In this document: positions 4,620-63,483 of the stretch, in pieces
Numbering within the stretch: position 1 is the stretch's first letter
Layout of the letters: the number at the start of each line of letters is the position of its first letter
NCBI GenBank assembly: GCA_964016885.1
Contig: OZ024742.1
Coordinates: 92,504,001-92,568,000, forward strand
From: Eledone cirrhosa
Taxonomy: Eukaryota
Direction of reading: 5' to 3'
Length of the DNA stretch: 64,000 bases
The notes under the pieces: generated by a model
Databases searched by the model: none
The model's input: the letters and a program-made list of their open reading frames with translations, nothing else
What the model was told of the DNA's origin: nothing
Translations under genes and position numbers: made by a program

Positions 4620-6180
4620 TGTTTGGCACCTCTGATGTCTTAGCGACAATAAACAAAATTAAATACAACTCAGCAATAGGGTCTCTGCTTGTCTCTTGAT
4701 GGTGCATTAACACCAACTTGCATTTCCTCTAGCTAATCTATGGAGGAACTTGCTGAATGCTGGCTATATCCCTGTAATCTTTGTCCCAATTATCAAAAAG
4801 GGGGACAAGTTTCTTGCAATGAATTACTATCCTCACTCACCTTTCATATGATTCAGGTATTAGAGAGGGTGGTGAAATCACAAATAACTCACTTCCTTGA
4901 AACAACAATTTGCTGAACTCCAACCAGATGGATTCTGAAATGGTAAGGACTGCCTAACGCAGTTCCTGCATCACTTTGATGAAAGAGCTTTGGGAGAGGA
5001 CTCCAACACTGATGTCATATACCTTAATTTCAGCAAGGCCTTTGTCAGGGTTGATCACAATATCTGTTGAAAAAACTATCCAACATTGGTATCTCTGGAA
5101 AGTTACAATGGATTAAGTGATTCCTGATGAACAAAGCCCAACATGTTGTGGTCGAAGGAATACAATCAAGCTCAGGCAAAGTCAGTTGTGGCATCCCGCA
5201 GGGCACTGTGTTGGGCCCACTACTCTTTATTATTTACATCAACAACATTACCGATGCCATTAAGCACAGCAACAATAATGAAGTGGGAGATCGGACATGC
5301 CTTCAATCAGATCTACCTGCTGTTATCCAATAGGCGGGGAAAAACTATGCTACTGACTGAGGATAAATTTGAATTAATCCACTTTGGAAAAGAGGATGCA
5401 CTGAAGTTATATCTTCTTCCCTCAGGTGAAACCATCATGGCATCCAACAACACCAGAGACCTTGGAGTAACTGTTGATCACCTAAGATGGGCTACTTATA
5501 TAAACAACAAAGCTGACATGGCCCACAGGATGAGTTCCTAGATTCTCAGAACTTTCTGATCAAGAGATATCCACACCATAAATCCTTCTCTTCTCTACTT
5601 TTGCTCAGCCCCACTTTGAATACTGTTGTCCACTGTGATCTCCCCACATAAAACAAAGTATGAAAATTGAAGCACCTCAAAAATCAATCACAAAAAAGAT
5701 AGATAGCATAACAGGCTATCTATTGGGGTCGACTAGAAGAGCTCAAACTTTCTTTCCAGCGCTGCCATGAGTGCTACATCCTCTGCATGATGTGGAAAAT
5801 ATTCCATCAACATTGCCCAAATGATGTTGGCATCATCTTTGAAATCCACCTAAGGCTTGGGCCCCATGCTATCTGCCCACTACAAAAATCAAACTCACAT
5901 CACATAACATTATGGCACAATTATTTCACTTCAAATGGTCCCACTCTCTTTAACATCATACCAAAATACATAAAAACAGAAAGATATCACATAAAATTCA
6001 AAATGTCTTTGGACAAATTCCTCCAAGGAGTTCTGGATAATTCCCCTACACTCAAATATATATCCAAAAAGAATAACTCTCTACTTGAGTGGGCCATAGT
6101 GTCCAAAACATGATTTCAAAGACTTCGCCAGGCGGTGCTATTTAGACATGGCCTGGGTCAATACTAGCTGAAAGTTATCA
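4620..6180 (+). mobile_element. Second degenerate, 5'-truncated CR1-like LINE (RT and C-terminal region)
   Basis: 'DVIYLNFSKAF', 'GIPQGTVLGPLLFIIYINNI', 'RDLGVTVD', 'FKMSLDKFLQGVLD'; frameshifted. Confidence 0.85.
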
Positions 6181-9490: not shown

Positions 9491-10552
9491 TTAGCCCTCT
9501 CCTGCTTATTATCATCCTGCAGTCTATAATGGAAAAGTGTAAGATTGGCTGCCCATGGCAGTTTCTGTATGCCAATGATCCAGCCATTATAGCTTATCTA
9601 TCACAGATCTAGAGAAGAAATTCCAAACATGGAAACAAGGCCTAGAATCTAAAGGTCTCAAAGTCAACCTGGCAAAGACCAAAGTCCTAGTATGTAGAAA
9701 GGATAACAGGGCCCAGATTCCCTCAGGGAATGATGCGTGTATACAAACAGTAATGTTGCATGGCAGTGGGACCTGGGCACTGTGTGCAGAGGGCCTACGA
9801 AGATTGGAAAGAAATGAAGCTTCCATGATTTGATGGATGTGTAATAATAATATACATGAACAGCAAAGCATAAATGAACTGAAAGAGAAACTAGGTATAA
9901 GAGGGATCAGATGTAGTGTGAAGGAGAGGAGAATGCATTGGTATGGACATGTGATGCATATGAAAGATGACAGCTGTATAAAAAGGTGCAAGGGGCTCAA
10001 GTTTGATGGAAACTGTGGTGTAGGAAGACCTAGGAAGACTTGGGATGAAGTGATAAAAGCTGACCTTGTACAATAGCACCTCTGAAAGGCGATGACATAG
10101 GATCGAGATCTCTGACGTTAGGAAGTAATACAGAAGACCCGCCTTCCCATGTTCACAGGTTGAAGTATACATCTTGTATGCACTACCTTCCCCTGTTTGC
10201 ATCTCCCATGTCTAACACTCCATCCATGCCAGAACACCCCATCCCCTCACACACACACACACCCTAGATCTATCTCTCCCCCCTGTCCCAGCCCACATTG
10301 TAAAATGGTTTTGATGGCGACACAACAAAAAGCAACAAAAACCCCCAGCCCACACTGTGGCTCATATAGGTGACATGAGAAAAAGTGCCCAGCCCACACT
10401 GTAGTTAGGAATGGCATCCAGCCATAGAAACCAAGTCAAAACCAGTCCTGTAATAAGTAAGTCATTGTCATCAAACCCAGCTTGTCTCACAATGGGGCAA
10501 CTTGTCTAACCCATGGTAGCGGGGAAAATGGATGTTAAACGGTGATGATGAT
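9490..10552 (+). mobile_element. 5'-truncated, internally deleted RTE LINE (RT C-terminus + 3' UTR)
   Basis: 'LSPLLLIIILQ...GCPWQFLYAND', 'ERRMHWYGHVMHM...GRPRKTW'; ends in ggaaaatggatgttaaacggtgatgatg tail. Confidence 0.85.
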
Positions 10553-26192: not shown

Positions 26193-27630
26193 ACACTAGT
26201 ATATACTAGTGTATATAAAATATTTAAACATTAACTGAATAATCACTCAATTCATGTGAGCAGAGTATAAGATAAGATGTATTTTCTAAAGAAGCATACA
26301 TCAAAACTTAGAAGTCATTGCCACCTTTTGAGTCAGAAATAGATACATACGTACTGTAAGGTGGTCATGTTGGTGACACAAGTTCCCAGTCAACACTGTA
26401 AAGTGGTCATTTCAGTGCCACAAAAAAAAACACCCAGTCATAACTGTAACATATGGCTGGTGTTAGGAAGAGCATCAAGCAGTAGAAACCAAGCCAAAAT
26501 ACAGAGCCATATGAGCAAGACATAGTTTTTAGACCTAACTTGTCTCATAATCTGACAACCTGCCTAACCCATGCTAACGTGAAAATGGACATTTAACGAT
26601 GATGATGATATCTACATTGCCCAACACATGCAAGCATGGAAAATCATCATCATCAATTTACATCCGCTGTTCCACACTATGGGCTGGATGGGTCTTTTTC
26701 AGTACAGCCTCTCTCTACATGTCATCTAAAACAGTGATGATGATGATGATCTAAGAGACTAACAGGGCAAAAAAATGTAAGCATTGGTGCTGAAAGTTTA
26801 AGAGGAGGCTATTTTGTTAGTACTGTGTTCCCACTATAGTGGTAATAGCCTAAATGTAATCTCTACTAGATTCCCATTAATACTGTAATGAACAACGCAT
26901 ATAGAAAAAAGAAGATAAAACACTAAAAATAGGCAAGCGCTCACAGAGCAGCTTTATAGTTACATATCTTTATAACTCATTGTTAATGGTGTCCTCTAAA
27001 GCTGTTGTTTACATTTGTTTTTAATTGAAAAAAACAGATTTTTTCTGCAATGAAATGAGCATATGATGAACCCAGCACCCCGTTTTGTAAACAAGCAAGG
27101 CCTAGACTCTTTACAGTGGAGGAAAATATTGATATATATTCTATGGATGAAAATTAGTTTAACTGCATCCATTACTCTTGAGCTGTGTATGCAACTATTT
27201 ATTTTTTTGCTCAGGAACCCAGGTGAGGGGTAAAGTTAGACACAAGAGCCCAGGTCTGAGTGGGTTAAGGTTAAAAATAAGTTTAATACAATATACAATA
27301 ATGCACAATATAAAAGTATTAAATCATAGTAAAGAATATGTATACATGACTACCCAGTAGTTTGAGACAAACAATGACAGGAGGAGGAGGATGATGATGG
27401 TGTTGAAAGAGAGGGTGGTAGAAGAGGAGGATAATGGAGGAGGAGGTAGAAGAGATTGATGATTGAGGGGTGGAAAAGGAAAATGATGATGATGATGATG
27501 GAGGAGGCAGCTAGAAAATGATAGAGGTGGTGGAAGAGGATGGTGACAAGAGCAATAACAACAAAAAGATGTGAAAAGAAGATAAGAAGAAACCAAAAAA
27601 TTACAGAAAAATATAAAAACGAGTACATAC

Positions 27631-27825
27631 TCTTCTCATTTGCATTGACTTGACAGCTGATAAGAATTCACTGGTTCGATCCCGGCATGTTCCATCTGGA
27701 ACTGTTAATACATCACGTGGGGGAGATTTAGAAGATGAATTCAAATTAGAGCTCAAGTTGTGTGAACCTTCCAGGAGTTGGACTGTTTCCTGGTTGTAAT
27801 GTGTGTGCCGTCTTCGTGCAATCAT
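27631..27825 (-). CDS. STX5: Syntaxin-5 first coding exon (acceptor at 27837, ATG at 27825)
   Basis: MIARRR...PDGTCRDRTSEFLSAVKSMQMRR|gtatgt; di-Arg N-terminus and RDRT-x-EF Sly1-binding N-peptide. Joined CDS = 1011 nt, 336 aa. Confidence 0.95.
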
Positions 27826-28530
27826 TGTTGAGCAGGTCTGAAAGAGACAAAAAGAGTGTGTGTGAGAGCTGCTGTAGAAGTTTGTGAATGTCTGCATGTG
27901 TGTGGAATATCATGGAAGTCTGTATGTGTATGTGGGATATGCTGTAGAAGTCTGTATAGGTAAAATACGATGGCTGTTTATGTGTGTGAAATGCTGCGGA
28001 TGTTTATGTGTGCATGTGATATGCTGTGGAAGTCTGAATGTATGTGTATGATTTGGTGTGTGGATGTTTCTGTATGAATTGCTGTGAAAATCTGCATGCG
28101 AGTTGGAGTGTATGTGCATATGAATTGCTGTGTAAGACTGCATGTGCGTGTGTGCAAGTTGTTATGTAAATCTGCATGTGTGTATGTGCATGTGATCATT
28201 ACCATTGGTGTGTTGGCAGGATCATTAGTGTTGAAGAAAATGCTTTATGGCTCTATATGTTCTGAATTCAAATCCTGTTGAGGTCAACTAGAATCAATAA
28301 AATAAAGTATCATTCAACTACCAAGATTGATATGATAGACTTTCTCCTCCCAATAAATAGCTAACTTTGTGGCTAAATTAGAAATTACTAGGTGCCCCTC
28401 CCCACCATCCCGCCAACAGACCTCTACCGTATTACCACTAATCTTTGTAATAAACTATATGCATGACATAAGTTATCTCCCTTCACTCAACTTAAAAAGG
28501 GGTTTTCTCCCCTTTTCATTCATTCATATA

Positions 28531-28705
28531 TATGTAATAAACAACATAAGGCAATTATTCCATTTACCAGTGGTTTCTTAAAAGCAAAAAATTTTGCTTT
28601 CAATCATCACCAGGATTTTTTCATTCTGATGATTAAAAGCAAAATTTTTTGCTTTTAAGAAACCACTGGTCAATGGGATAATTGCCTTATGCTGTTTATT
28701 ACATA
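28531..28705. repeat. Inverted repeat, 79-bp arms (28531-28609 / 28627-28705), 17-nt spacer
   Basis: Direct reverse-complement match with a few mismatches. Confidence 0.92.
28619..28678 (+). ncRNA. Type I hammerhead ribozyme motif (Penelope-type, short palindromic stem III)
   Basis: Stem I tttcatt / aatggga; CTGATGA 28626-32; stem II ttaaaagcaaaa..ttttgcttttaa; GAAA 28659-62; stem III aCCA-c-TGGt; GUC cleavage triplet 28669-71. Confidence 0.8.
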
Positions 28706-28795
28706 ACTATTAAGCTCTGTTACCTACATAGAGCACTCTTTTTTCCTGGACTTTTCCGACGGAATTACTTCATTCATACACATATATATATATAT

Positions 28796-29108
28796 ATATT
28801 AAAATACAAATATTAATAAAATAGATGTTCTTTTGATCAATTACATTTTATTATACATATTTCGGATGTACAACAGTACGTCCTCATCAGACAAGATATA
28901 ATGATACATGACATACCCTGAGATGTTAAATGGTTAAGATTTAATCAATACTACCTTGATTAAATCTTAACCATTTAACATCTCAGGGTATGTCATGTAT
29001 CATTATATCTTGTCTGATGAGGACGTACTGTTGTACATCCGAAATATGTATAATAAAATGTAATTGATCAAAAGAACATCTATTTTATTAATATTTGTAT
29101 TTTAATAT
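28796..29108. repeat. Perfect inverted repeat, 153-bp arms (28796-28948 / 28956-29108), 7-nt loop tactacc
   Basis: Arms are exact reverse complements by inspection. Confidence 0.95.
29002..29064 (+). ncRNA. Type I hammerhead ribozyme motif (mirror copy on minus strand at 28840-28902)
   Basis: Stem I attatatcttgt / ataaaatgtaat (11 of 12 pairs incl. wobble); CTGATGA 29014-20; stem II ggacgtac-tgtt-gtacatcc; GAAA 29041-44; self-complementary stem III atatgtat; AUA triplet ending 29052. Confidence 0.7.
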
Positions 29109-29204
29109 TAATAACTCTGGAAAATTATTTTTTCCGTAGAGTGCTTCCAATCTACTGTAAAACTCATTCTTTGATATACTCATTGAATCTTGTTTAACTT
29201 TTTA

Positions 29205-29244
<40 letters not shown>

Positions 29245-29591
29245 CCAATATAACATTTGTTGTTTTGTAAACTAACTTTCGGTGAATACTATGGTTGGTA
29301 AATATATATTTTTTTTTTCTTCGACCTCGCGTCGGTGTGTGTGAGTGTGTGTGCACTCACTCACACTAACTGTGACCGATTGTAATTCTAAAGATTTGAT
29401 GTTGAGATTAGACCCGTCCAGCGTCTTTTACAGCTATTGAGAGATAGAGACTTGATAGTTTTATGACCCTAACTGAGGACGATAGCAGTCGGCGTGTTTT
29501 GGCTGCTTAATCTTCATATGGGGGACAAAACTCTAGTGAGTGAACATCGTTAAATTTTCTCCCTCATATCAAGGATTTGAAGACAATTCAT

Positions 29592-29666
29592 TTTCACCTG
29601 ACGAGATCAGTGATAATCGATCATGACCGCACGATCGATCTATCTCTTATTGAAACGTGTCATGAT
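29592..29666 (+). ncRNA. Degenerate hammerhead motif with long stem II
   Basis: CTGACGA 29598-604, long hairpin containing atcgatc/gatcgat, GAAA-CGTG-TC 29652-61; weak stem I. Confidence 0.55.
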
Positions 29667-29852
29667 TAAAATTATTGGAAATTTATACCATGCCTTCGGA
29701 TCTTTATTTTGATACAAATACTCCGTTTTACATCATCTAGCTGTTCCCATAAATGGAATTGGAGATATACAAAAGCATGGAGAACTTAATATTGCTAACA
29801 AAAGTTTATTGGACCGTATGACACAACCAATAATACACCTTACTATATAACA

Positions 29853-29911
<59 letters not shown>

Positions 29912-30189
29912 ATAGATATATATATGTGTGACGGGCAGACAGACTAAGAAACAGCTTTTCTTTTATAATATAGATTATCATTTTTACATCCAATTTTCCA
30001 TACCGGCATGAGCAGAATGGGAGTTTTAGGAGCAGTGCTTCATGGGAGGAGGATTTTTCTCACACTAATCTTTTTAGTAATAAAGATTCTAAAAACTGAA
30101 ATACAAATATTACAAAACTATTAAATGTCTCCAGAGTCTCTATTCACGCGTATGTATATATATATACTTACATATGTGTGTGTGTGTGC

Positions 30190-32960: not shown

Positions 32961-34710
32961 CCACCCTCTTATCAGTTTTTATTCAGAGTGCCAGCACTCC
33001 TAGACAGGTTGCCTTCACTATGGCTTGCAGGCTCCATGTCAGCCTCATGCAGTTATTTTTAATTAGGGTCACTGCCCATCCACAAACCTGATTTGAATGT
33101 TTGCACTCAAGAGTCAGATGGAGGTGGTGTTAAAATGGACAGCTAATGAAGTTTATCACCAAAGTAGGCCACAGCACGATTTGAAGTCAGAGGGCAAAGA
33201 GCCAGAACAAATAACATAAGGTGTCTCATCCAATATTCTCACCAATGCACTGCCTTTGATTGCTACTTCATTTAAAACCCCCAGAAGGATGAAATGCAAA
33301 GTTGGTATTGAATACTACACAGCATTATATCCAATGTTCTAAATCTTCGGCTAATTTGTCACCAAACAGTTTTAGATATTAAAAAATAAGCACTGGGGTC
33401 GATATAATCAACTTAAACTTTTCAGGGCAGTGACCCAGTATAATAATGAAATTATTGTATAGCCACAATCAAATGATTGAAGCCAATAACAGAATCAATA
33501 AATACCTCTATTTCCACAAACGAAACATGGAACTAGAGAAAATAGATCTGAAGCAAGATTCCCATTTTATTTATATATATATAAATGTGTGTGAGTTTTC
33601 TTTTTTATTCGAAAACGTTTAGATTTGGTTCTGTACTTTAAAATAACATCGACATATTTTTAATTTTCTAATTACAATTAGACTGGTCAAACAATGTTAC
33701 CGCCTTAAAAGGATTTTAATCGATCAAATCGACCCCAGTACTTATTTTTTTCTGTTGTGTTTATTTTATCGATCTTTTTTGTTGAAAAGCTACATTACCG
33801 GACAAAGACAAACAATACATTTGGTGTGTTTAACTATTTCGTCTCTCTATATATCTATCTTTCTCATACACACACACACAAAGGCATTTGTTATTTTTTT
33901 TACTCCTCCAATGGAAGTTTGACAACTCGTGCAAATAGCACCAGCTTTTAATTTAGCTCTTTTCTTTGTTAAATATTAACTGTTGAAATATTAACTGGGA
34001 AATATATTGGAATTTAATATTACTCTTCCTCTCTATCTCAAATTGGCTTACAAAAAGAAACTATTATACATTGTGCATCTGTGTGAGTATATACGCACAC
34101 ATATGTATATTATATATACGTGTGTGTGTGTGTGTGTGTGTGTAAATATATATATATATGTATGTATTTATATTTACACACACACGTATTATAATGGATG
34201 TCAGTCTGGCTGGCAAAAAAGGGTATAAGTTTTATACACACACTCATACAAACAAACATATGTATTTGTGTATTTCTGTGTTAAATGAAACAGTTGCCTT
34301 ACGAAAATCCTGTTTATCTTATACATATGACAGCCGCACACTTCTTACATAAAATATTAAAAGTGCACAGATGGTACACCTTTAATATTTTTGTACCATA
34401 AAATAAAGAGACAGCGGGGAAGGTGAGACACAGAGAAAGGCAGGGAGGCAGGTATCAGATAAAGATAGGCAAGTACAACAGATAATTTGAAGGAAATCCG
34501 TTTAGCTGTCAAAGTAGATCGGATGAGTTTGTGCAAACTCATTGGCTCCGCTTAAAATATGCTGATTTCGATGAAAAGTTGTAAAGCGAGGATAAAAATG
34601 TCGGCACAAATATTTGCGGAATGTAAATAGAGTTTCTTAACGGATACAATATTTGACAAGTTGATATGGGAGGCGAAAATAAGCCAAAAAGGATAATAAA
34701 AATAACCTAC

Positions 34711-34790
34711 CCTGGACACCAATACCAGCAGATGCGTGCTTTAATAAACTAACTCTATCCACGTAACCAGATAGACGTAAAACTTCCGGT
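34711..34790 (-). promoter_or_regulatory. Probable STX5 promoter and non-coding exon 1
   Basis: Minus-strand ETS motif ACCGGAAGT (34782-34790) in a CpG-containing stretch, followed ~70 nt later by donor cagg|gtaggt at 34711/34710; coding exon 1 has an acceptor that needs an upstream exon. Confidence 0.55.
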
Positions 34791-35282
34791 GAGTAGCATA
34801 AGAGTAGCCCCCCCTTACGAATATGACTGAAGAAAGAATTATTCACATGTCTATGATTTTAGAATAACTTTGAAAATAATCAAGATTTTGGAGGGATTTA
34901 GTAATATAAATAACTTTCGAATTATTTTTTCTCGTGTTTGGAATATAATCATTTCGTTACCATATTTTCAACCTTTTCATTACTTCTTTACACCGGTCGC
35001 CGCTGAGATATCAGGTGCCCTCAGACTGCCTACAGCTGACCTCCTCCGTGAAATCGGAATGATAGCTGCCAGTCTGAGGAAGGAGACCCACAGGTGTCGC
35101 TGGCCATTGTCCGCAGTAATGCCTTTGCCATTTAATTCGCGGGGCGCAGCCGAAACACCACTCTGACTTTGGTGTAGAGTCCATCATCTTCTCCCCTTCC
35201 CCTATTTTCGCTGCTTAATCCCAGCCCGTTCCCCATTTTCCTCTCATGTAAGCACTCAATGTCATGAGTTTTCTTCCAAAAA

Positions 35283-35461
35283 CAGGTAAAATTCCTTTAT
35301 AACAAATACCATTATAACGAATTTTTCTTTATAACGAATTTTTTTCAATCCCTGGGGTTTGAAAACGTTCGATTTGTTTCGGTCGATCTCGTTATAAAGA
35401 ATTTTTCGTTACAACGAATTTTTTATACCCCGTGAATTTCGTTATAACGGAATTTCACTTG
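35283..35461. mobile_element. Tigger/pogo-like MITE
   Basis: Inverted ends caggtaaaattcctttataac / gttataacggaatttcacttg with internal ttataacgaattt repeats. Confidence 0.65.
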
Positions 35462-37630
35462 ATATTAAACTGGTTTGTTTGTTTTTTTCTTTCGTTGCTT
35501 ATTTGGTATTTAGATTGGCTGAGTCGATAGTGCGTTGGATATTTTTTGCAGGATTCGTTCTATCTCTCTGTTCTTTGAATGCAAATTCCGCCGATGTCAA
35601 CTTTGCCTTTTATTCTTTTGAGGTCGATGAAAAAATACTAGTCCAGTACTAGGGTCGATTCTTCCTCTATATATTTTTCTCACTTCCCCATTATCACCCT
35701 CTTTTTTTATCTGGAAGAAGTCGGCTGTGTTCAGACTTGGAGAGGGGATCGGTTCCTCCGTGTTTAAAGTGCCCAAAAGTTGTGGATCCATACATCCTAG
35801 AATCAGGGGTCGTTTGATGCCGTTTGGTATCAAAAAGGTTAAAAGAAATTTCTAAAGATTTTTTTGGCAGGCTAAGAAATTCCATTTCCATAGCCGAGTT
35901 AAGGCGCTAGAATAGTCAAGTCCCTCAACGAGCATCCTCAGATACTTCGCAGTAAGGCGAGCCGTCTACAATGATGATAATAATCGTTTGTACTTTAGGC
36001 ACAAGGCTATGATAATAATAATAAAAAATAAAATAAAAACACGTTGTCGGTGATCCAGCTCCTGCAAACCTCTAGAACGTCAAGTTGAAATATATAGTTT
36101 ACCGATAATTTACGGTACAAAATGTTCTAATGAATAAAGAGCCTTCAAAAAATTTTCAGGCACTGTGGATAGGACGGTAGCCTTGGTATTTAGCGCCCTG
36201 GGCTAGCTCTACAATGTGTAGCCTTTTTTTTTTTTTTTTTTTTTTTTTAAATAAAGTAATTTAAAATAACAGTTTGTGAACTGACGAACCTAGTTTTTGA
36301 CGATTCTTGCTCTGACCACACTAAGAAAATTGATAACCCAGCGTTTTCTACTACACAGTCCACATACACTAACTCATGTTGCAGGTCATAATACCATACG
36401 GCATTTTCCACCGTTTTCCACCCGACAAAACGTGGCGAATTGGCAAAGTTGTTAGAACGTCGGATAGAATGCTTTGAAGTATTCGTTTCGACTCTCTGCT
36501 CTCTGATTTCAAATCCAGCCGAAATCAACTTTGCCTTCCATCTATTTGAGGTTGTTAAAAATGTACCAGTCTAGTACTGAAGGTCGATTTTTCCTCTATA
36601 TCTCTTTCTCACTTCCAACCTCACTTTTTATCCTTCTCTGGAAAAAATTTGCTGTATTCAGACCTGGAAAGGAGATAGGCTCCGCCAAATTTAAAAATGC
36701 CCTAGAAACGCCGTATTTCAATGCGACTCCCTCAAAAGTTACGGGACTCTGCTTGCATGCTACGCGACAAAGCACTTCAATGGTTTATTTATTAATCGTA
36801 GGAAATTATGATATTTTAAAACTAATTAGCAGTAACACTAATAATATATCTTATATGTCTTCATATACACCTCTATTCGTGTTAATTATACAAACTTGTG
36901 TAAAACTGTGACCCGTTATGGTTCAATCATGCGCCTCTTTGCGGTTTAATTCACCCTTATGGTAGCGCTGGCCCTGAATATGGCACAGGCACATCCAAAG
37001 ACTAAGTCATCTATAACAAGACAGTGATAATAATTATTTCTTACATTAGCATAAATCAAAAAATTAGGTGGGGTATAGTAGATTATATCGATCTTAGTAC
37101 ACGACTGGTACTTATTTTATCAATCCTTTAAGGATGAAAGGCAAATTTTAAAGTTGCAAGCAGTCCAAATTAAAAATTAAACTATTTTGTCCAGTACAGA
37201 AAAGGGAAATCCGCGATGTGAACCAATCTGGTTATCTTGGCTTTATGATGATTGTCTGAGAACTTATACAATATGTACGTATATTAACATCTGAGAGAGA
37301 GAGAGAGAGGGGGATTAGTAGAGGGAATAAGGAAGGGAAAGAAAGAAATAGAAAGAAATGCGCAAAGAGAGAGAGGGGGAGCAAAGAGAATGCTTAGTTA
37401 AACGAACAAGGATTTTCTCAAGTTCAATAAAGAAAACAAAATTTTAACACCCCTACATCAAAGGGTATCAATAGATTCGTCCAGTGTTGTATATAAACAG
37501 TGACGCTTACACGATGGAGATATACAAAGATTGATAGAGAAAAGACAAATATAAGCAAATTGAAGCACACGCCAAAATGAAAATGAAACGAAATGTTTCT
37601 ATTATTTGCTCAAAAATGGTTGAGCCCACT

Positions 37631-37640
37631 ATGACGTCAT
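37631..37640. promoter_or_regulatory. Full CRE palindrome (aTGACGTCAt) ~330 bp upstream of the PIN-gene ATG
   Basis: Exact TGACGTCA extended to a 10-bp palindrome; function not shown. Confidence 0.45.
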
Positions 37641-37972
37641 AATTAATAGTGATTTTAACCTTTCGGTCAGCGAAGAAATAAAGAAAGAAGGAAAAAATAC
37701 AGACAAATAAAAGGGGAGGGGGATAAAAAATTTGGTGTTATATTTAAAACTTAATTTTTCCCTATGAGAAAGTAAAGAAAAAGAGGAAAGGGGAAAAGGG
37801 GGGGAAAAGAGAAGAAAAAGAGGGAGAAACGGAGGAAGAAGAAAAAAGGAAGACTAGAATCAATGCGATGATTGCTTGGCCAACGAATCCCTTTTCAGTT
37901 ACGAATCAACCCAAACTATTTCGTTTCCAGCATCCTACAATACATCTGGCAAATTTCTTGCGATATGACATC

Positions 37973-38009
37973 ATGAAGAAACAGGACAGTTATTTCAATA
38001 ACTACCAAG
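37973..38009 (+). CDS. PIN-like nuclease gene, putative exon 1
   Basis: atcATG MKKQDSYFNNYQ+G|gtgaga; phase 1 matches the acceptor at 39077. Confidence 0.6.
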
Positions 38010-38045
38010 GTGAGACACACACACACAGTTATTAATCCTTTTGGG

Positions 38046-38214
38046 CAGTGCCGGATTTAGGACAAATGAGGTCCTGTGCTAGTTAAGTTATGAGGCCCCT
38101 TACTTGGGCCCTGAAGGGGCCTCGTAACTTTTGGGGGCTGGAAGATGCCCCCCATCCCGGTCGACGGGGCCCTGTGCTTAAGCACACCTAAGCATAATGG
38201 TCAATCCGGCATTG
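38046..38214. mobile_element. hAT-like MITE
   Basis: TIRs cagtgccggatt / aatccggcattg, internal ggggccc motifs; no clean TSD. Confidence 0.7.
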
Positions 38215-39076
38215 CTTCCGTGGTTAAAGCTTGACTCATACTTATTTAAATATGAGTCAAGCAACGCCTTCGAAAGAAATTTTGCTTGGTGGAACAGGAC
38301 TTGTTTCGATCCCAAAGAGAGTTTGAGAGGGTTATGGAGGTAGTCGTCAGGATTCTATCAGAACCGCTTGGATTCCCTACCAAGCTTATTGATGTTATCC
38401 AACCATCTTCGTCTACCTCGGGGTATCTCGCCAATGGGCTTTGCCTGTAAAACCTGGTCGTCGATTCTTTCCGACCGGAGTAAACCTATCCCGTGCACGT
38501 TGGAAATTACCTTCGGATTGAGTTAAGTAGCACAATATCGTCTGCTTCCAACTTCCTACTACACTCACAGATTTTGACACCATTTCTAACCCGGGTTTGC
38601 TTGTCAATCCTGTTCATGTATATGAACCAGAGAGGTGATACAACCTATTACAGGTTCCTTCGAACGCAGTTGTATGCCTTTTCGAGGTTTACAAAACAAG
38701 CATACACCCCTTGGCAATACTCCCACGATTTCTCGAAGACCCACCGTAGAGTGAATACCTGGTCGGCTGTGTTAGGTCAGGGGTGAAAATCACACTGTTC
38801 GACAATATCCCTACATCCTCTTTAGCAGGCACTCAATTTGTCTGAGTAGCTACTCTAAAATTCCTTACCATAGGTTTTGAAAACATCGATTTTTATACGC
38901 GAAGATCTCTAGATTATTATTCCATGTAAAAGCCCCAATCTTTCAATACATTTACAGGAATTAGTGTTATTCACAATACTTCAAAAGCTTATCCCTTATA
39001 TAGAGATGAAATTGAGATGCTTTTGGTTTGCTTGTTTGTTCTTTTTCATTGAACTTTAATGGTGGATATTTCCCAG

Positions 39077-39560
39077 GCCGTCATCAGCCAAGAGGAAGAA
39101 CCAGGCATCCTAATCTAAAAAGAAGAAATCGATCGAAATTTCAAAGAAGGAGAGTACATGATGTCAGAAAATTGCAGAAAGTTGCCATACCTCACCGCCC
39201 TTTCTACCAACGTTGGTCTGTCACTGGCTACAAACACCTACCACCGCGTCCCAACATATCACGATTGACACACCGAAGGTGGCAGCCGGTACGCGCCCGT
39301 GGAGGATTTGCTGTTATCAATAGAAGGCATAGTACACATTGCCCAAATCATCGCCGAGCGAATCCAGTCGCGTTCAGATCCAGACTTCATCATCGACGTT
39401 ATCGTCTGCTACCTTTGAAACATAAATTATCCAGGATGGATCACATTATATTTTGGGATATAGATAACTGGAGTCGTTTATTTGAAAAGCTGAAATTTTT
39501 CGTGCCCATTAATACCTTCGTATGGGGTTTCCATAGTACGATGTGGAACGAGCCAACCAG
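39077..39560 (+). CDS. PIN-like nuclease gene, exon 2 (Arg-rich region + PIN N-terminus)
   Basis: ttcccag|GRHQPRGRTR...KLSRMDHIIFWDIDNWSRLFEKLKFFVPINTFVWGFHSTMWNEPT(R)|gtaaag; cf. ZNF451 'THIVFVDFDNWSNFF...TFIWGFQ'. Confidence 0.85.
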
Positions 39561-40029
39561 GTAAAGCATTCCTATTACAGATTTCTAATTTCGAAGGGGT
39601 GTCATCCAAATAACGCAAGGCATTTAGGCAGACACCCCTTGCGTGATTTAGCTATGTCCCTTTATGTTGTTTTTGATGTCAACTTTGTTTTTCACCCTTT
39701 CGGAATCGATAAAATAAGTACCAATCAAGTACTTGATCGATATAACTGACCTCCCTAATGTAGTTGTAAATAAAGATGGGAAAATATATGCTATGAAATG
39801 TCAAGCGAAAACAGACAGGCAAGTTATTTATTTACGTGATTATACTGAACTGAATAGATGAGTGGAACAAAGTTGAGAAATACAGAAGAAATAAAATTGT
39901 CACCACATAGACGGATGGTGATTTTTGCTAATTCTCAGATCTTTAAGTCAAGAGTTCTTGAGCTCTTGAAGATCGCTGCGTTACATTATCTCATAGTTGC
40001 TGGTTAGAGTGAAATCGAATCCCTGGTCC

Positions 40030-40810
40030 AGGAGACGATCTATCAAGCTGGAGCGAGCTCTCTTCGAAGCCTGAATCCCAGTGCTGATTCTCCTTCCATC
40101 GCCTCCAGCGGTTTCCTGGTTAACCCAAACCTTACAAGGTGACTTGAGACTTCTGTTGCCGACACCACGATGTCAGCTACCACGACATCGTCGATATAGG
40201 AATTAGTGACCCTCTTCATCTTGTTCACCTTCCCAGAATGGCTTTGAGAACCGTCACCATGATTTTTAGTGCCAAATTCAACCCGAAATCCAGCTTGGTC
40301 AGACAGTATGTCTGGCCATTATACCTGACCAGCTCATACTTCCACAGTGGAAGTTTTTTCCGCAAACATCTGTGACCTCGCTGCCTGTGTGACACGATAA
40401 ATTCAGTTCACGAAAGTCCAGCACCAGCCTGACTTTGTTGTTGGTTGTACTCCTGCCACTACTGTCAACACTCTGCTCTTCCGAGAGATTAATATGTCTC
40501 TTTGCACCTCTTCTTCAAACTCGCTTCTAGCATCTCCTTTCAGGGTATGCTGATAGCAGTTCATTCTGTTCTTCAACGTCAGGGGCTCTCCTTTCCAGTA
40601 CCACTCAACTATCCACCACTGGCCGTCGAACAGAGCCCTGAAATCCTTGTCTTGTATGGTATAAACAGCACAATTTTCCTTCATGGATATCCCTGCTCCC
40701 CTGCTGCACACTCATGGTGCATAATGTTATGCTTCCTAAATAGCAGATCACATCCATATCAATACCATCCACTATGTGGTTGATCACGATCACCCACAGC
40801 CTTTTCATTC
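40030..40810 (-). mobile_element. Degenerate LTR-retrotransposon-like RT fragment in the PIN-gene intron
   Basis: 'YCLTKLDFGLNLA', 'SYIDDVVV', 'HLVRFGL...LGFRL' RT-type motifs with frameshifts. Confidence 0.6.
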
Positions 40811-60624: not shown

Positions 60625-63483
60625 CATCATCATCATCATCATCACCGTTTTACGTCCGTTCTTCCACGCTAGCATGGGTTAGACGGGTTGTCCTGTTGTG
60701 GGCAGTGTCTGGTCGGCTGACCATGCCTTGCTCATACAGGAACTGATCTGGCTTGATTTCTACAGCTGGATGCCCTTCCTAACACCAACCTCATTTACAG
60801 TGAGTGCTGGGTGCTTTTCCGTGGCGCCTACACGTCCACTTTACAGTGTGGGCTGGGTGCTTTTTTGCCGTGACACCTCCACGACCACCTTGCAGTGTGA
60901 GGGTGTGGGGGCATATTGTCTATATGCTTCAGCTTGTACCCATGGGAGGTCGGGTACTCTGTATTACTGCGTGACGCCAGAGGTCACGGTCGTGTGTCAT
61001 CGCCTTTGAGAGGTGTAATTGGGTAAGGTCGGCTTTTATCACCTCATCCCAGGTCATCTTGGGTCTCCCCACTCCGCGGTTTCCATCGACTTCTAGTGCT
61101 CTGCACCTTTTTATGCAGCTGTCATCCTTCATACGCATCACATGTCCATACCAACACAACCGCCTCTCCTGCACACAGCATTTGATTCCTCTTATGCTCA
61201 GTCTCTCTCTCAATTCATTTATGCTTTGTCGTTCGCTTATATTACTATTACACATCCATCAGAGCATGCAGGCTTCGTTTCTCTCTAATCTACGTAATTC
61301 TTCCACCTTCAGCGCCCAGATCTCACTACCATGTAACATTGCTGTTCGGATACACGCATCATACAATCTGCCTTTCATTTTGAGGGAGAAGCCTTTTGCA
61401 GCTAGCAGTGGCAGTAGTTCCCTGAACTTCTTCCATCCCATTCTTACCATAGTTATTGTATTTTCTGAACACCCACCTCCGCTGCTAATTCGGTCACCTA
61501 GGTAGCAGAAGCTGTCTACTGTCTCTACAGAGCCTTCCCAGAGATTGGTGGTACTTGTTTCCTGTGGCTGTTTGCTGCTTGCTGTCTCAGTACAGCTGCT
61601 GCATGTGAAGCCTACATTCTTAATTAAGCTTCCTAAGATCCCGCTACATCTCTTGTGTACCCATTGTTTGCATTTGGGGCAGAGAATGGAGTTCCTACCT
61701 ACACCTTTCCTACATACTGAGCAAGGCCATTTCCCTGAGGGGATCTGGGTTCTGTTTTCTCGTCTACTTACAAGGACCTTAGTCTTTGTCATGTTGACTT
61801 TGAGACCCTTTCTTTCTAGTCCCTGCTTCCAAGTTTGGAATTTCTTCTCTAGTTCTACCATAGATTCAGCTATAAGTGCGAGGTCATCAGCATACAGGAG
61901 TTTCCATGGGCATCCGGTCTTAAACTTCTCCGTTATTGCCTGCAGGACTATGATGAACAGGAGAGGGCTAAGAACAGAGCCCTGGTGGACACCAACCAGT
62001 ACGCTAAATTCCTCGCTATACTCATTGCTAATCCTAACTTTGCTGACTGCTCCCCTATACATGGCTTGTACAGCTTTCACAAGCCATTCATCTACTCCTA
62101 GTTTTCTAAGAGCCCACCAGATTATAGCACGTGGAACTCTGTCAAAGGCTTTCTCGAGATCGACAAATGCCAGGTAGAGTGGCTTACTTTTAGCTAGATA
62201 CTTTTCCTGTAACTGCCTCACAAGGAAGAGGGCATCAGTCGTGCCTCTTCCTGGTACAAACCCAAATTGCATCTCATCTAGTTTCACCTGGTCCCTAATC
62301 AACTGTGCTATAACTCTTTCTGTTACTTTCATGACCTGGTCCATCAGCTTTATACCTCTATAGTTTCCTCGATCGAGTGCATCACCTTTACCTTTGTAGC
62401 AGTTGACAATGATGCTACTGCACCAATCTTTTGGTATGACACCTTCTAGTATTACCTGGTTAACAATACGTGTGGTTATAGTGTGACCTACAGACCCAGA
62501 TGCCTTCAGCATCTCGGCAGCTATACCCGATGGACCGGTTGCCTTCCCCATCGTCATATCTTTGATTGCCTTACTACGCTGCTGCTTACTTGTACTGCTG
62601 GCCCCTCTATAGGGTCTACTTGGGGGTAGGGTCTCTTCTTCCCATGCATTCTCCTCATTTAGTAATCTATCATAATGACTCTTCCATGCATCTTTCTTCT
62701 CAGCACTTGTGAGGGCAAGCTCACCTTTATCATTCCGGATACATTTCTCTCCAATGACATCACAATTCTCTCTGACACACTTCCTCGCAACCTTGAACAC
62801 CTCCTGTTTCTGGTCCTCACGTTGCAAAACATGCTTGAATTTTCTATCCTCTGCTTCCCTCCTAGCTAAGTATACTTGTCGCCTCGCTTCCCTCTTGGTC
62901 TCTATGTAATGTACCCTGCTCCCCCCGTTCTTCCATTCTTTCCATGCCTGTCTCTTGGCCTTAACTGCCTCATCTACCTTATTGTTCCACCACCAAGTCA
63001 CTCTCCTCCTGCTTGTGGTCTTACTCCAGCCACAAACCTCATCCGTCGCCTCTAGTAAGTTATTTTTTAGGAACTCCCAGTGCTCTTCTACATTGAATGT
63101 CTCTATCTGTTCTTCTCTACTGTCGTAGGCGTTGAGTAAAATATCTTTAAATCTGTTACTGGCTGAGGGGTCTTTCAGCTTCCAGATCTTTCTTCTCCAG
63201 GCTGGCCTCTGTTTCCAGGTTCGTCTAGTTCTGACCGTGAGGTCGCTGACAACTAAGCTATGTTGGGAGGTACATTCCTCACAGGGAAGGCTTTTGTGTT
63301 TCCGACCGTCCATCTGTCACGTCCTCTATCTGACTAGAATGCTCCCCTGATCTATAGGTGATCAGGTGGTTGTCGGGTTTTTTGAAGTTTGTGTTACATA
63401 TCGACATGTCATTGGCGTCGCAGAATTCTAGAAGTCTAAATCGTTCTTCATTTCTTGTGCCAACCCCATGGCCTCCATGGACT
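60625..63483 (-). mobile_element. Young 5'-truncated RTE-clade LINE (partial APE, RT with internal PHD-like Zn finger, 3' UTR, (ATG)n tail) in a DOCK intron
   Basis: 684-aa ORF with YRGIKL, QFGFVPGRGTTDA, FVDLEKAFDRV, GVHQGSVLSPLLF, YADD, CSVC..CPKC..H..C..CSSC; one premature TGA at 61259-61261, after which the ORF continues to 60929. Confidence 0.95.

Follow-up and report, generated by a model that had tools for sequence, protein, structure and literature searches.

A perfect hairpin at positions 28796 to 29108 of the window, by which we mean the whole 64-kb stretch of Eledone cirrhosa DNA analysed here, places a hammerhead motif on each strand. We interpret this hairpin, at a probability of roughly 0.88, as a head-to-head end of a Hydra-type Penelope-like element (PLE) in a (TA)n tract of STX5 intron 1, likely very young and likely polymorphic, whose two-strand hammerhead is likely a passive by-product without host function.

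Anatomy of the insert and its host gene

Sequence comparison confirmed exact inverted arms, 28796-28948 and 28956-29108, which are reverse complements over 153/153 bp and enclose a 7-nt loop, TACTACC, as the sequence-only reading had described. The insert as a whole is asymmetric. It consists, in this order, of (TA)n (28781-28795), the inverted short-ended arm, the loop, the direct arm with its tail, and (TA)n again (29207-29242); because (TA)n lies on either flank, any target-site duplication would be hidden. The inverted arm (28796-28948, minus strand), which is sense to the STX5 pre-mRNA, covers the element from +7 to its short 3' end (q633-785 of the reference) and is followed by ATATAT. 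The direct arm (28950-29108, plus strand) extends from the putative +1 to the short 3' end, and the loop (28949-28955, plus strand) is made up of one T and of ACTACC, the first six bases of this right arm. From its start at 28950 the right arm continues through a tail of ~97 nt (29109-29206, plus strand), which is present on one arm only and which, in a full-length copy, leads into the 5' leader of the open reading frame (ORF). The arm symmetry stops at the ends of the 153-bp arms, the next two positions outside being unpaired.

The hairpin was also claimed to lie inside the STX5 transcript, and the exon structure bears this out. The Pfam model Syntaxin-5_N matched the exon at about 27837->27631 with 28.1 bits (cut-off 16.6); this match and the span of a contig define the first coding exon of the host gene (27631-27837, minus strand). 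In run X4, one contig connects 27837 directly with 34711 across a gap bounded by CT..AC, equivalent to GT..AG on the minus strand, and thereby reaches an upstream exon of at least 43 nt (34711-34753, minus strand; donor GTAGGT at 34710). The kind of run is not on record for X4, which we took as RNA by inference only, because its contig covers exon only. Based on this joint, the hairpin is located in intron 1, which precedes the first coding exon. A CpG-rich stretch at 34500-40500 begins at the upstream exon and is likely the STX5 promoter region; a CCGGAAGT motif near 34785 on the minus strand is presumably ETS-like. The STX5 exon (27604-27909) also contains an upstream in-frame ATG (MIARRRH..), and it reads GTCRDRT at the place where the short isoform is expected to have its second start Met.

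Three such element ends stand side by side, at 28523-28780, 28796-29206 and 29244-29856. The first, neighbour B, is a second head-to-head Hydra-type PLE end, with an inverted arm at 28523-28609, a direct arm whose core CTGATGA is at 28626, and a tail of ~70 nt; on the minus strand, its arm ends one base before the core C is reached. At another locus of this family (L082), an ORF with RMRWKA and DKT motifs lies behind the tail. An inverted short-ended arm was found in 15 of the 23 other fetched loci of family B, several of which are nearly loop-less palindromes, and the pooled arm difference was 2.1%. The third end, neighbour C (plus strand, core CTGACGA at 29598), has the same anatomy with a single arm; its family has a long helix II and two 3' ends ~130 nt apart, and 4 of 15 other copies carry an inverted short-ended arm; no parent ORF was found for it. 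The block 28484-29946, with three young PLE-type ends in one (TA)n, may be a serial landing pad in which each insert leaves TA behind, or it may have been deleted in the other sample described below.

A high-copy Penelope-like family of the Hydra type

As a query, the arm gave 33 genome matches in a first search, the near-full ones being 93-99% identical, and the upstream piece adjoining the arm gave 2,250 first-look candidates. The exact 38-nt hammerhead string (core, helix II and helix III) occurs 1,404 times in the genome, its reversed control 0 times. No other copy of the arm family is present within the 64-kb window. Judged by its sequence motifs, the arm is the hammerhead-bearing end (pLTR) of a high-copy PLE with Hydra-clade features that inserts into (TA)n.

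The parent element was recognised at locus L061, where the arm sequence ends a minus-strand element with a broken ORF, in sense with the arm, for a reverse transcriptase (RT), a linker and a GIY-YIG-type nuclease. The RT motif YRDD is found in the L061 pieces and the nuclease motif VYKC..YIG(S/A)T in L047, L057 and L122. The latter locus is a relative, 84% identical at the arm, with a 750-aa open frame; the Atlas neighbours of this frame score 0.96-0.98, and part of their members carry GIY-YIG, HTH_animal or RVT_1. A Pfam search of the parent ORF pieces returned nothing significant. Arm and tail adjoin the ORF-bearing loci L110, L111, L113 and L117, where the hammerhead pLTR is thus repeated upstream of the ORF, and at L061 the tail sequence runs on into the ORF leader. 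The 3' UTR of the family is about 1.6 kb long (L061) and its copy number is in the thousands.

The Hydra clade has been defined by RWK, DKT in place of DKG, a CxCx5C linker and (TA)n targets (Craig et al. 2021, PMC8557442). Our assignment is a comparison of motifs with this published definition. L061 has RMGWRA, a decayed RWK, and VKSDKT, and the family B locus L082 has RMRWKA and SDKT. The linker KCNCRNKIDC fits CxCx5C, and CALCTME..INKKSELFSNCLH provides the CxxC and the CxH around E and N, with CxxC altered to YNLC in L122/L123; CCHH, judged by eye, is absent from the parent ORF. Nearly all listed family ends are followed by ATAT or TATA, in keeping with insertion into (TA)n. Thus, the window family resembles the Hydra clade as described in PMC8557442 in its RWK-like, DKT, CxCx5C and CxxC/CxH motifs, its (TA)n targets, and a hammerhead near the 3' end with a helix III of 3-4 bp. 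It is a different family from Hydra-1_Obim of Octopus bimaculoides (also written Hydra-1_oBim), since its helix sequences do not match those given there. The helix III of neighbour B (ACCA C TGGT) resembles the one listed for Hydra-1_oBim in the PMC8557442 supplement.

Three other classifications were set aside. The Neptune label was dropped, as a CxCx5C linker with DKT fits the Hydra definition instead. A MITE or palindromic DNA transposon was ruled out by the asymmetric ends (short versus tailed), the varying apex and a parent that encodes RT. Non-LTR retrozymes (10.64898/2026.07.22.740005; PMC7229834) are likewise short, non-coding, PLE-end-related repeats with a type-I hammerhead, but they consist of tandem head-to-tail units (10.64898/2026.07.22.740005), whereas the window holds an inverted pair with an autonomous parent; among the first 100 motif hits, 16 pairs are head-to-head versus 1 on the same strand.

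Several observations concern repeats around these loci. The 3' UTR of L061, a locus with a complex direct/inverted structure, contains (TA)n (2210-2260 and 5945-6105), so that copies can receive further insertions. A second palindromic repeat with GACCCCGACGGC..GCCGTCGGGGTC arms, found repeatedly next to these elements, lies between (TA)n tracts in L125 (1180-1380 and 1790-1950), L004, L012 and L018. SINE-like repeats of the kind known from octopus are also present in the genome. In the window itself, long RT open frames occupy 60932-63316 on the minus strand (685 aa), with a decayed copy near 9580-10070; we take the former to be RTE-like LINE sequences.

Construction and age of the inverted pair

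Two termination points are shared by 66 of the 77 family segments in the first loci, with ATAT following nearly all of them. The short end (window 29108) accounts for 35 of the 77 and the long end, ~95-98 nt further on (29206), for 31. We counted by eye the head-to-head pairs with both outer ends readable, leaving out L003, L016 and L023, in which one arm was cut or did not pass the filter: 28 of 29 pairs combine one short with one tail-extending end and none has two tailed ends, the exception being L127 with two short ends. Of the 1,404 exact motif hits, 32 of the first 100 listed stand in head-to-head pairs, which within 5 kb makes 16 such pairs (12 of them within 600 bp), next to 1 same-strand pair and 0 tail-to-tail pairs; 68 have no exact partner within 5 kb. 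Extrapolated from these 16 pairs per 100 hits, there are probably a few hundred exact-motif head-to-head pairs genome-wide. The subfamily type agrees between the arms in 13 of 14 pairs (exception, L064). In many pairs, the apex lies elsewhere, the arms have unequal 5' reach and the loops span hundreds of bases.

The apex of the window hairpin coincides with a recurrent 5' boundary. At 57 distinct sites holding ACTACCTTGATT, 44 extend further upstream and 13 rows (12 loci) begin exactly at its A; an exact start at ACTACC was seen in 5 of 30 motif hits fetched in genome order, and single-arm copies likewise stop there. In longer copies, the apex A at 28950 lies in TCACT, which is Inr-like, and a TATA box is found at -31/-30 in 33 of the 42 scored copies with sequence beyond this point. 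The palindrome at L153 has no loop and its centre is the apex base, and L125 (G000:C18:16728168), of another subfamily and on another contig, repeats the 29-nt apex of the window; as its flanks are different, this junction forms repeatedly. These motifs and end pile-ups suggest that the copied RNA begins at 28950, a putative transcription start. A TATA box and a TCACT motif have been described in rotifer pLTRs (Arkhipova et al. 2013, PMC3846280), and Penelope has its start site within the pLTR (PMC8557442). At the apex, near the 5' end of the element, L061 also has a native 7-bp inverted repeat, TTAATCA-ctacct-TGATTAA.

We propose the following working model. The GIY-YIG nuclease of the element would cut both strands of (TA)n, and the pLTR-leader RNA would be reverse-transcribed from each 3' end, priming taking place at either of two sites that end in ATAT and are separated by ~97 nt. 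The two cDNAs would then reach the 5' end of the RNA, or come near it (the putative TATA/Inr start at 28950; under run-off, the element would start at the A of TCACTACC), and would be joined there, giving arms identical at birth, one tail and a tiny loop. The Poseidon protein PAc cuts and extends both strands, and two internal RT starts bound its tail (Frangieh et al. 2024, PMC11167929). The likeness to PAc in vitro extends to the template, both starts lying within RNA that spans the pLTR-ORF junction, and the hammerhead is dispensable for PAc insertion; the PAc start sites described have no homology to the cut DNA (PMC11167929), whereas the window ends ATAT/ATATAT presumably match (TA)n. The agreement of subfamily type in 13 of 14 pairs is what a single template predicts, although subfamilies active at different times would match too. 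The arms of different subfamily type in L064 and the two short ends of L127 mean that double priming on one RNA is not universal. Since the first-search copies were enriched for the rare C of the window by the search itself, C/T arm differences were not taken as evidence for two templates. We give about even odds to the broader proposition that the two-armed stumps, present in thousands, record how PLEs build inverted ends, by double priming on one RNA, run-off at +1 and head-to-head joining.

Possible, though in our estimate unlikely, is that the same element acquired its inverted arm by self-priming or fold-back at the native TTAATCA-ctacct-TGATTAA hairpin and not by two independent primings. 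The repeat sits at the apex in L061, copying one strand back would give the agreement of arm subfamilies (13/14), and self-priming on an antisense template has been argued for rotifer Penelope palindromes (Arkhipova et al. 2013, PMC3846280). In that rotifer, Adineta vaga, head-to-head arms, a one-arm tail and a pLTR with TATA and a TCACT Inr-like motif are found as here; its target-site duplications are visible (PMC3846280), whereas any in the window would be hidden by (TA)n. Self-priming alone, however, leaves the combination of one short and one tailed end (28/29) unexplained, and it does not sit well with the many pairs whose apex lies elsewhere, with arms of unequal 5' reach or loops of hundreds of bases, nor with single-arm copies ending at ACTACC. 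Far less credible still is a fold-back read or assembly artefact, which the sequence-only reading had considered. In its favour, one other genomic sample does not show the block; yet a fold-back would produce mirrored flanks and run past the terminus typical of the family, whereas here the flanks are unmirrored, the symmetry halts exactly at the short 3' end of the family, a tail is present on one arm only, and the same anatomy, down to the same apex, recurs at unlinked loci.

The arms could also belong to an older insertion that gene conversion or hairpin repair made identical, which we consider improbable. Relative to the family majority, the two arms share 4 deviating sites, three of which are subfamily marks and one a rare C that is seen in 0 of 36 majority-set segments. 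This shared C is compatible with conversion, and other pairs differ by 1-10%; the probability of zero arm mismatches would be only 0.4% at an arm divergence of 3.5%. It would be 0.21-0.46, however, at a divergence of 0.5-1%, and the tail, which is present only once, likewise differs little from its subfamily, so that the whole insert appears young and conversion is not needed. The right arm and tail together are within a few changes of their subfamily, and the nearest other copy differs from the arm at 1 of 153 positions. Arm identity in other pairs ranges from 77% (edge-affected) through 90% up to 99%, and in the exact-motif sample, 3 of 6 scored pair loci show no arm difference over 66-75 columns. 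Conversion had been named together with a very recent insertion; the recent insertion is upheld by these similarities and by the contigs of another sample.

In that sample, X1 and X2 each contain one contig that matches the window up to 28483 and again from 29947, with at most ~219 letters in between. Past 28483, the contig has 248 further letters, of which 29 match 29947 onward, and it therefore cannot hold the 313-bp hairpin. This presence/absence comparison among individuals thus indicates that the insert, and with it the whole 1.46-kb block, is missing from the genomic contigs of one other sample, a result that comes from one individual and one contig per run with 29 letters on the short side and that could also reflect a deletion there. 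The RAD-seq run X7 gave family reads on the arms but hardly covered the unique flanks, and X5 and X6 gave repeat pieces only.

Hammerheads on both strands and the antisense arm

As claimed, a hammerhead lies wholly inside each arm, with core, triplet and helices I-III located, and the 28902->28840 copy is sense to STX5. This type-I minimal hammerhead (28840-28902, minus strand) has its core, CTGATGA..GAAA, at 28890, helix III AUAUGUAU and a predicted cut after 28852; the copy antisense to STX5 (29002-29064, plus strand) has its core at 29014. Helix I forms 11 of 12 pairs and helix II 7 of 8, with one C-A mismatch apiece, and helix III is 3 bp long with a 2-nt UG loop; the triplet is AUA. The subfamily of the window has the canonical G10.1-C11.1 pair, and in the sense hammerhead, a C disrupts one helix I pair that the family majority retains. 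Among 16 young copies, 91% of the cells in the predicted helices were paired versus 25-56% in slid controls; compensatory double changes were found in none of them, a sample that is uninformative for covariation. Related families keep the core and helix III and differ in helix II. Rfam gave no hammerhead match at the gathering score or among the 65 matches at E<=10, which were generic hairpin hits to miRNA models below cut-off. A forced hammerhead dimer was not recovered as the minimum-energy fold, and 5' ends such as cleavage would leave were not seen, no listed family segment beginning 5 nt or less from the predicted cut.

Inverted copies with a hammerhead on both strands are already in print. 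Penelope-13_HM, an example from the Hydra clade, is catalogued as having a 5'-truncated inverted copy and the same hammerhead on both strands (Craig et al. 2021 File S1/S2, PMC8557442), and pairs of minimal hammerheads on opposite strands, ~100-700 bp from each other, have been reported (Cervera and de la Pena 2014, PMC4209133), an arrangement that the window pair fits at 161 bp. The metazoan PLE hammerheads described in PMC4209133 are, as here, type I with a long helix II and a near-palindromic helix III, mostly in truncated copies; the window differs from them in its long helix I (12 bp) and in having no extra base between A9 and G10.1. For EN+ PLEs, an adjacent inverted 5'-truncated copy with a tail of 30-40 bp has been described (PMC8557442), whereas the tails here measure ~97 nt (70 nt in B and about 130 nt in C). 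Beyond print, in the literature searched, are the long tail, the rule of one short and one tailed end, and the apex at the putative start site.

The sequence-only reading had seen in the duplex a lock that keeps the ribozyme off. Its geometric part stands, as the antisense arm is transcribed first on either strand in any head-to-head pair, and masking is reproduced in silico, with all helix I and II pair probabilities falling to 0.0 in a hairpin of -241 kcal/mol. That masking would explain tolerance in a housekeeping intron does not follow. In folding, the lone sense arm is also without helix I (0.0; helix II about 0.85), and no exact partner lies within 5 kb for 68 of the first 100 exact copies listed. 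Minimal PLE hammerheads did not cleave as single motifs in vitro (Cervera and de la Pena 2014, PMC4209133), and the PAc hammerhead did not cleave without protein (PMC11167929). The lone minimal hammerhead here is predicted not to cut, masked or not. Masking is unneeded because lone ribozymes cut poorly, most copies are unmasked and another sample is without the block; tolerance in the STX5 intron, which is spliced out, seems to need no special explanation.

We therefore regard it as very improbable that the STX5 intron tolerates an active sense hammerhead because of the antisense arm and that editing acts as a regulatory switch by unmasking cleavage. Such a lock is suggested by the sense copy in intron 1, by the loss of the ribozyme helices when the hairpin is folded, and by the canonical G10.1-C11.1 pair; furthermore, octopus gave the highest hyper-editing signal and palindromic repeats of frog are heavily edited (PMC5625713). 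Against it, a helix III of 3 bp with a 2-nt loop is of the dimer-needing type, the window offers no second family copy beyond this pair, single motifs did not cut in vitro, the block is absent from another sample, and pairing is the default product of insertion. Dimeric PLE hammerheads were reportedly described by Lunse et al. in 2017. By analogy, action of ADAR or Dicer on the hairpin is plausible; unmasking by editing is doubtful, as editing would presumably hit core adenosines too. X4 shows A>G differences at 28635 and 29176, which DNA runs have too, and where X4 pieces cover the arms, they have the base of the family majority and therefore come from other copies. In the literature outside subscription journals, we found no statement of a double-priming model for PLEs or of an intronic antisense lock.

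Hammerheads facing both ways in a hairpin are thus best read as the signature of a Penelope-like insertion and not as a regulatory switch. As a locus, the hairpin matters little, being one of many such pairs and apparently not fixed; as a likely insertion polymorphism in STX5 intron 1, it offers a natural with/without comparison for a perfect intronic duplex. Inverted pLTRs were named as unexplained by Craig et al. 2021 (PMC8557442), and the two 3' ends, one per arm, the 5' pile-up and the ATAT-target homology provide a testable model for them. If this model is true, a question of PLE integration that has stayed open would be answered by the 28/29 rule and the +1 position of the apex, and these families would represent a built-in factory of perfect intronic dsRNA for editing in Eledone cirrhosa.
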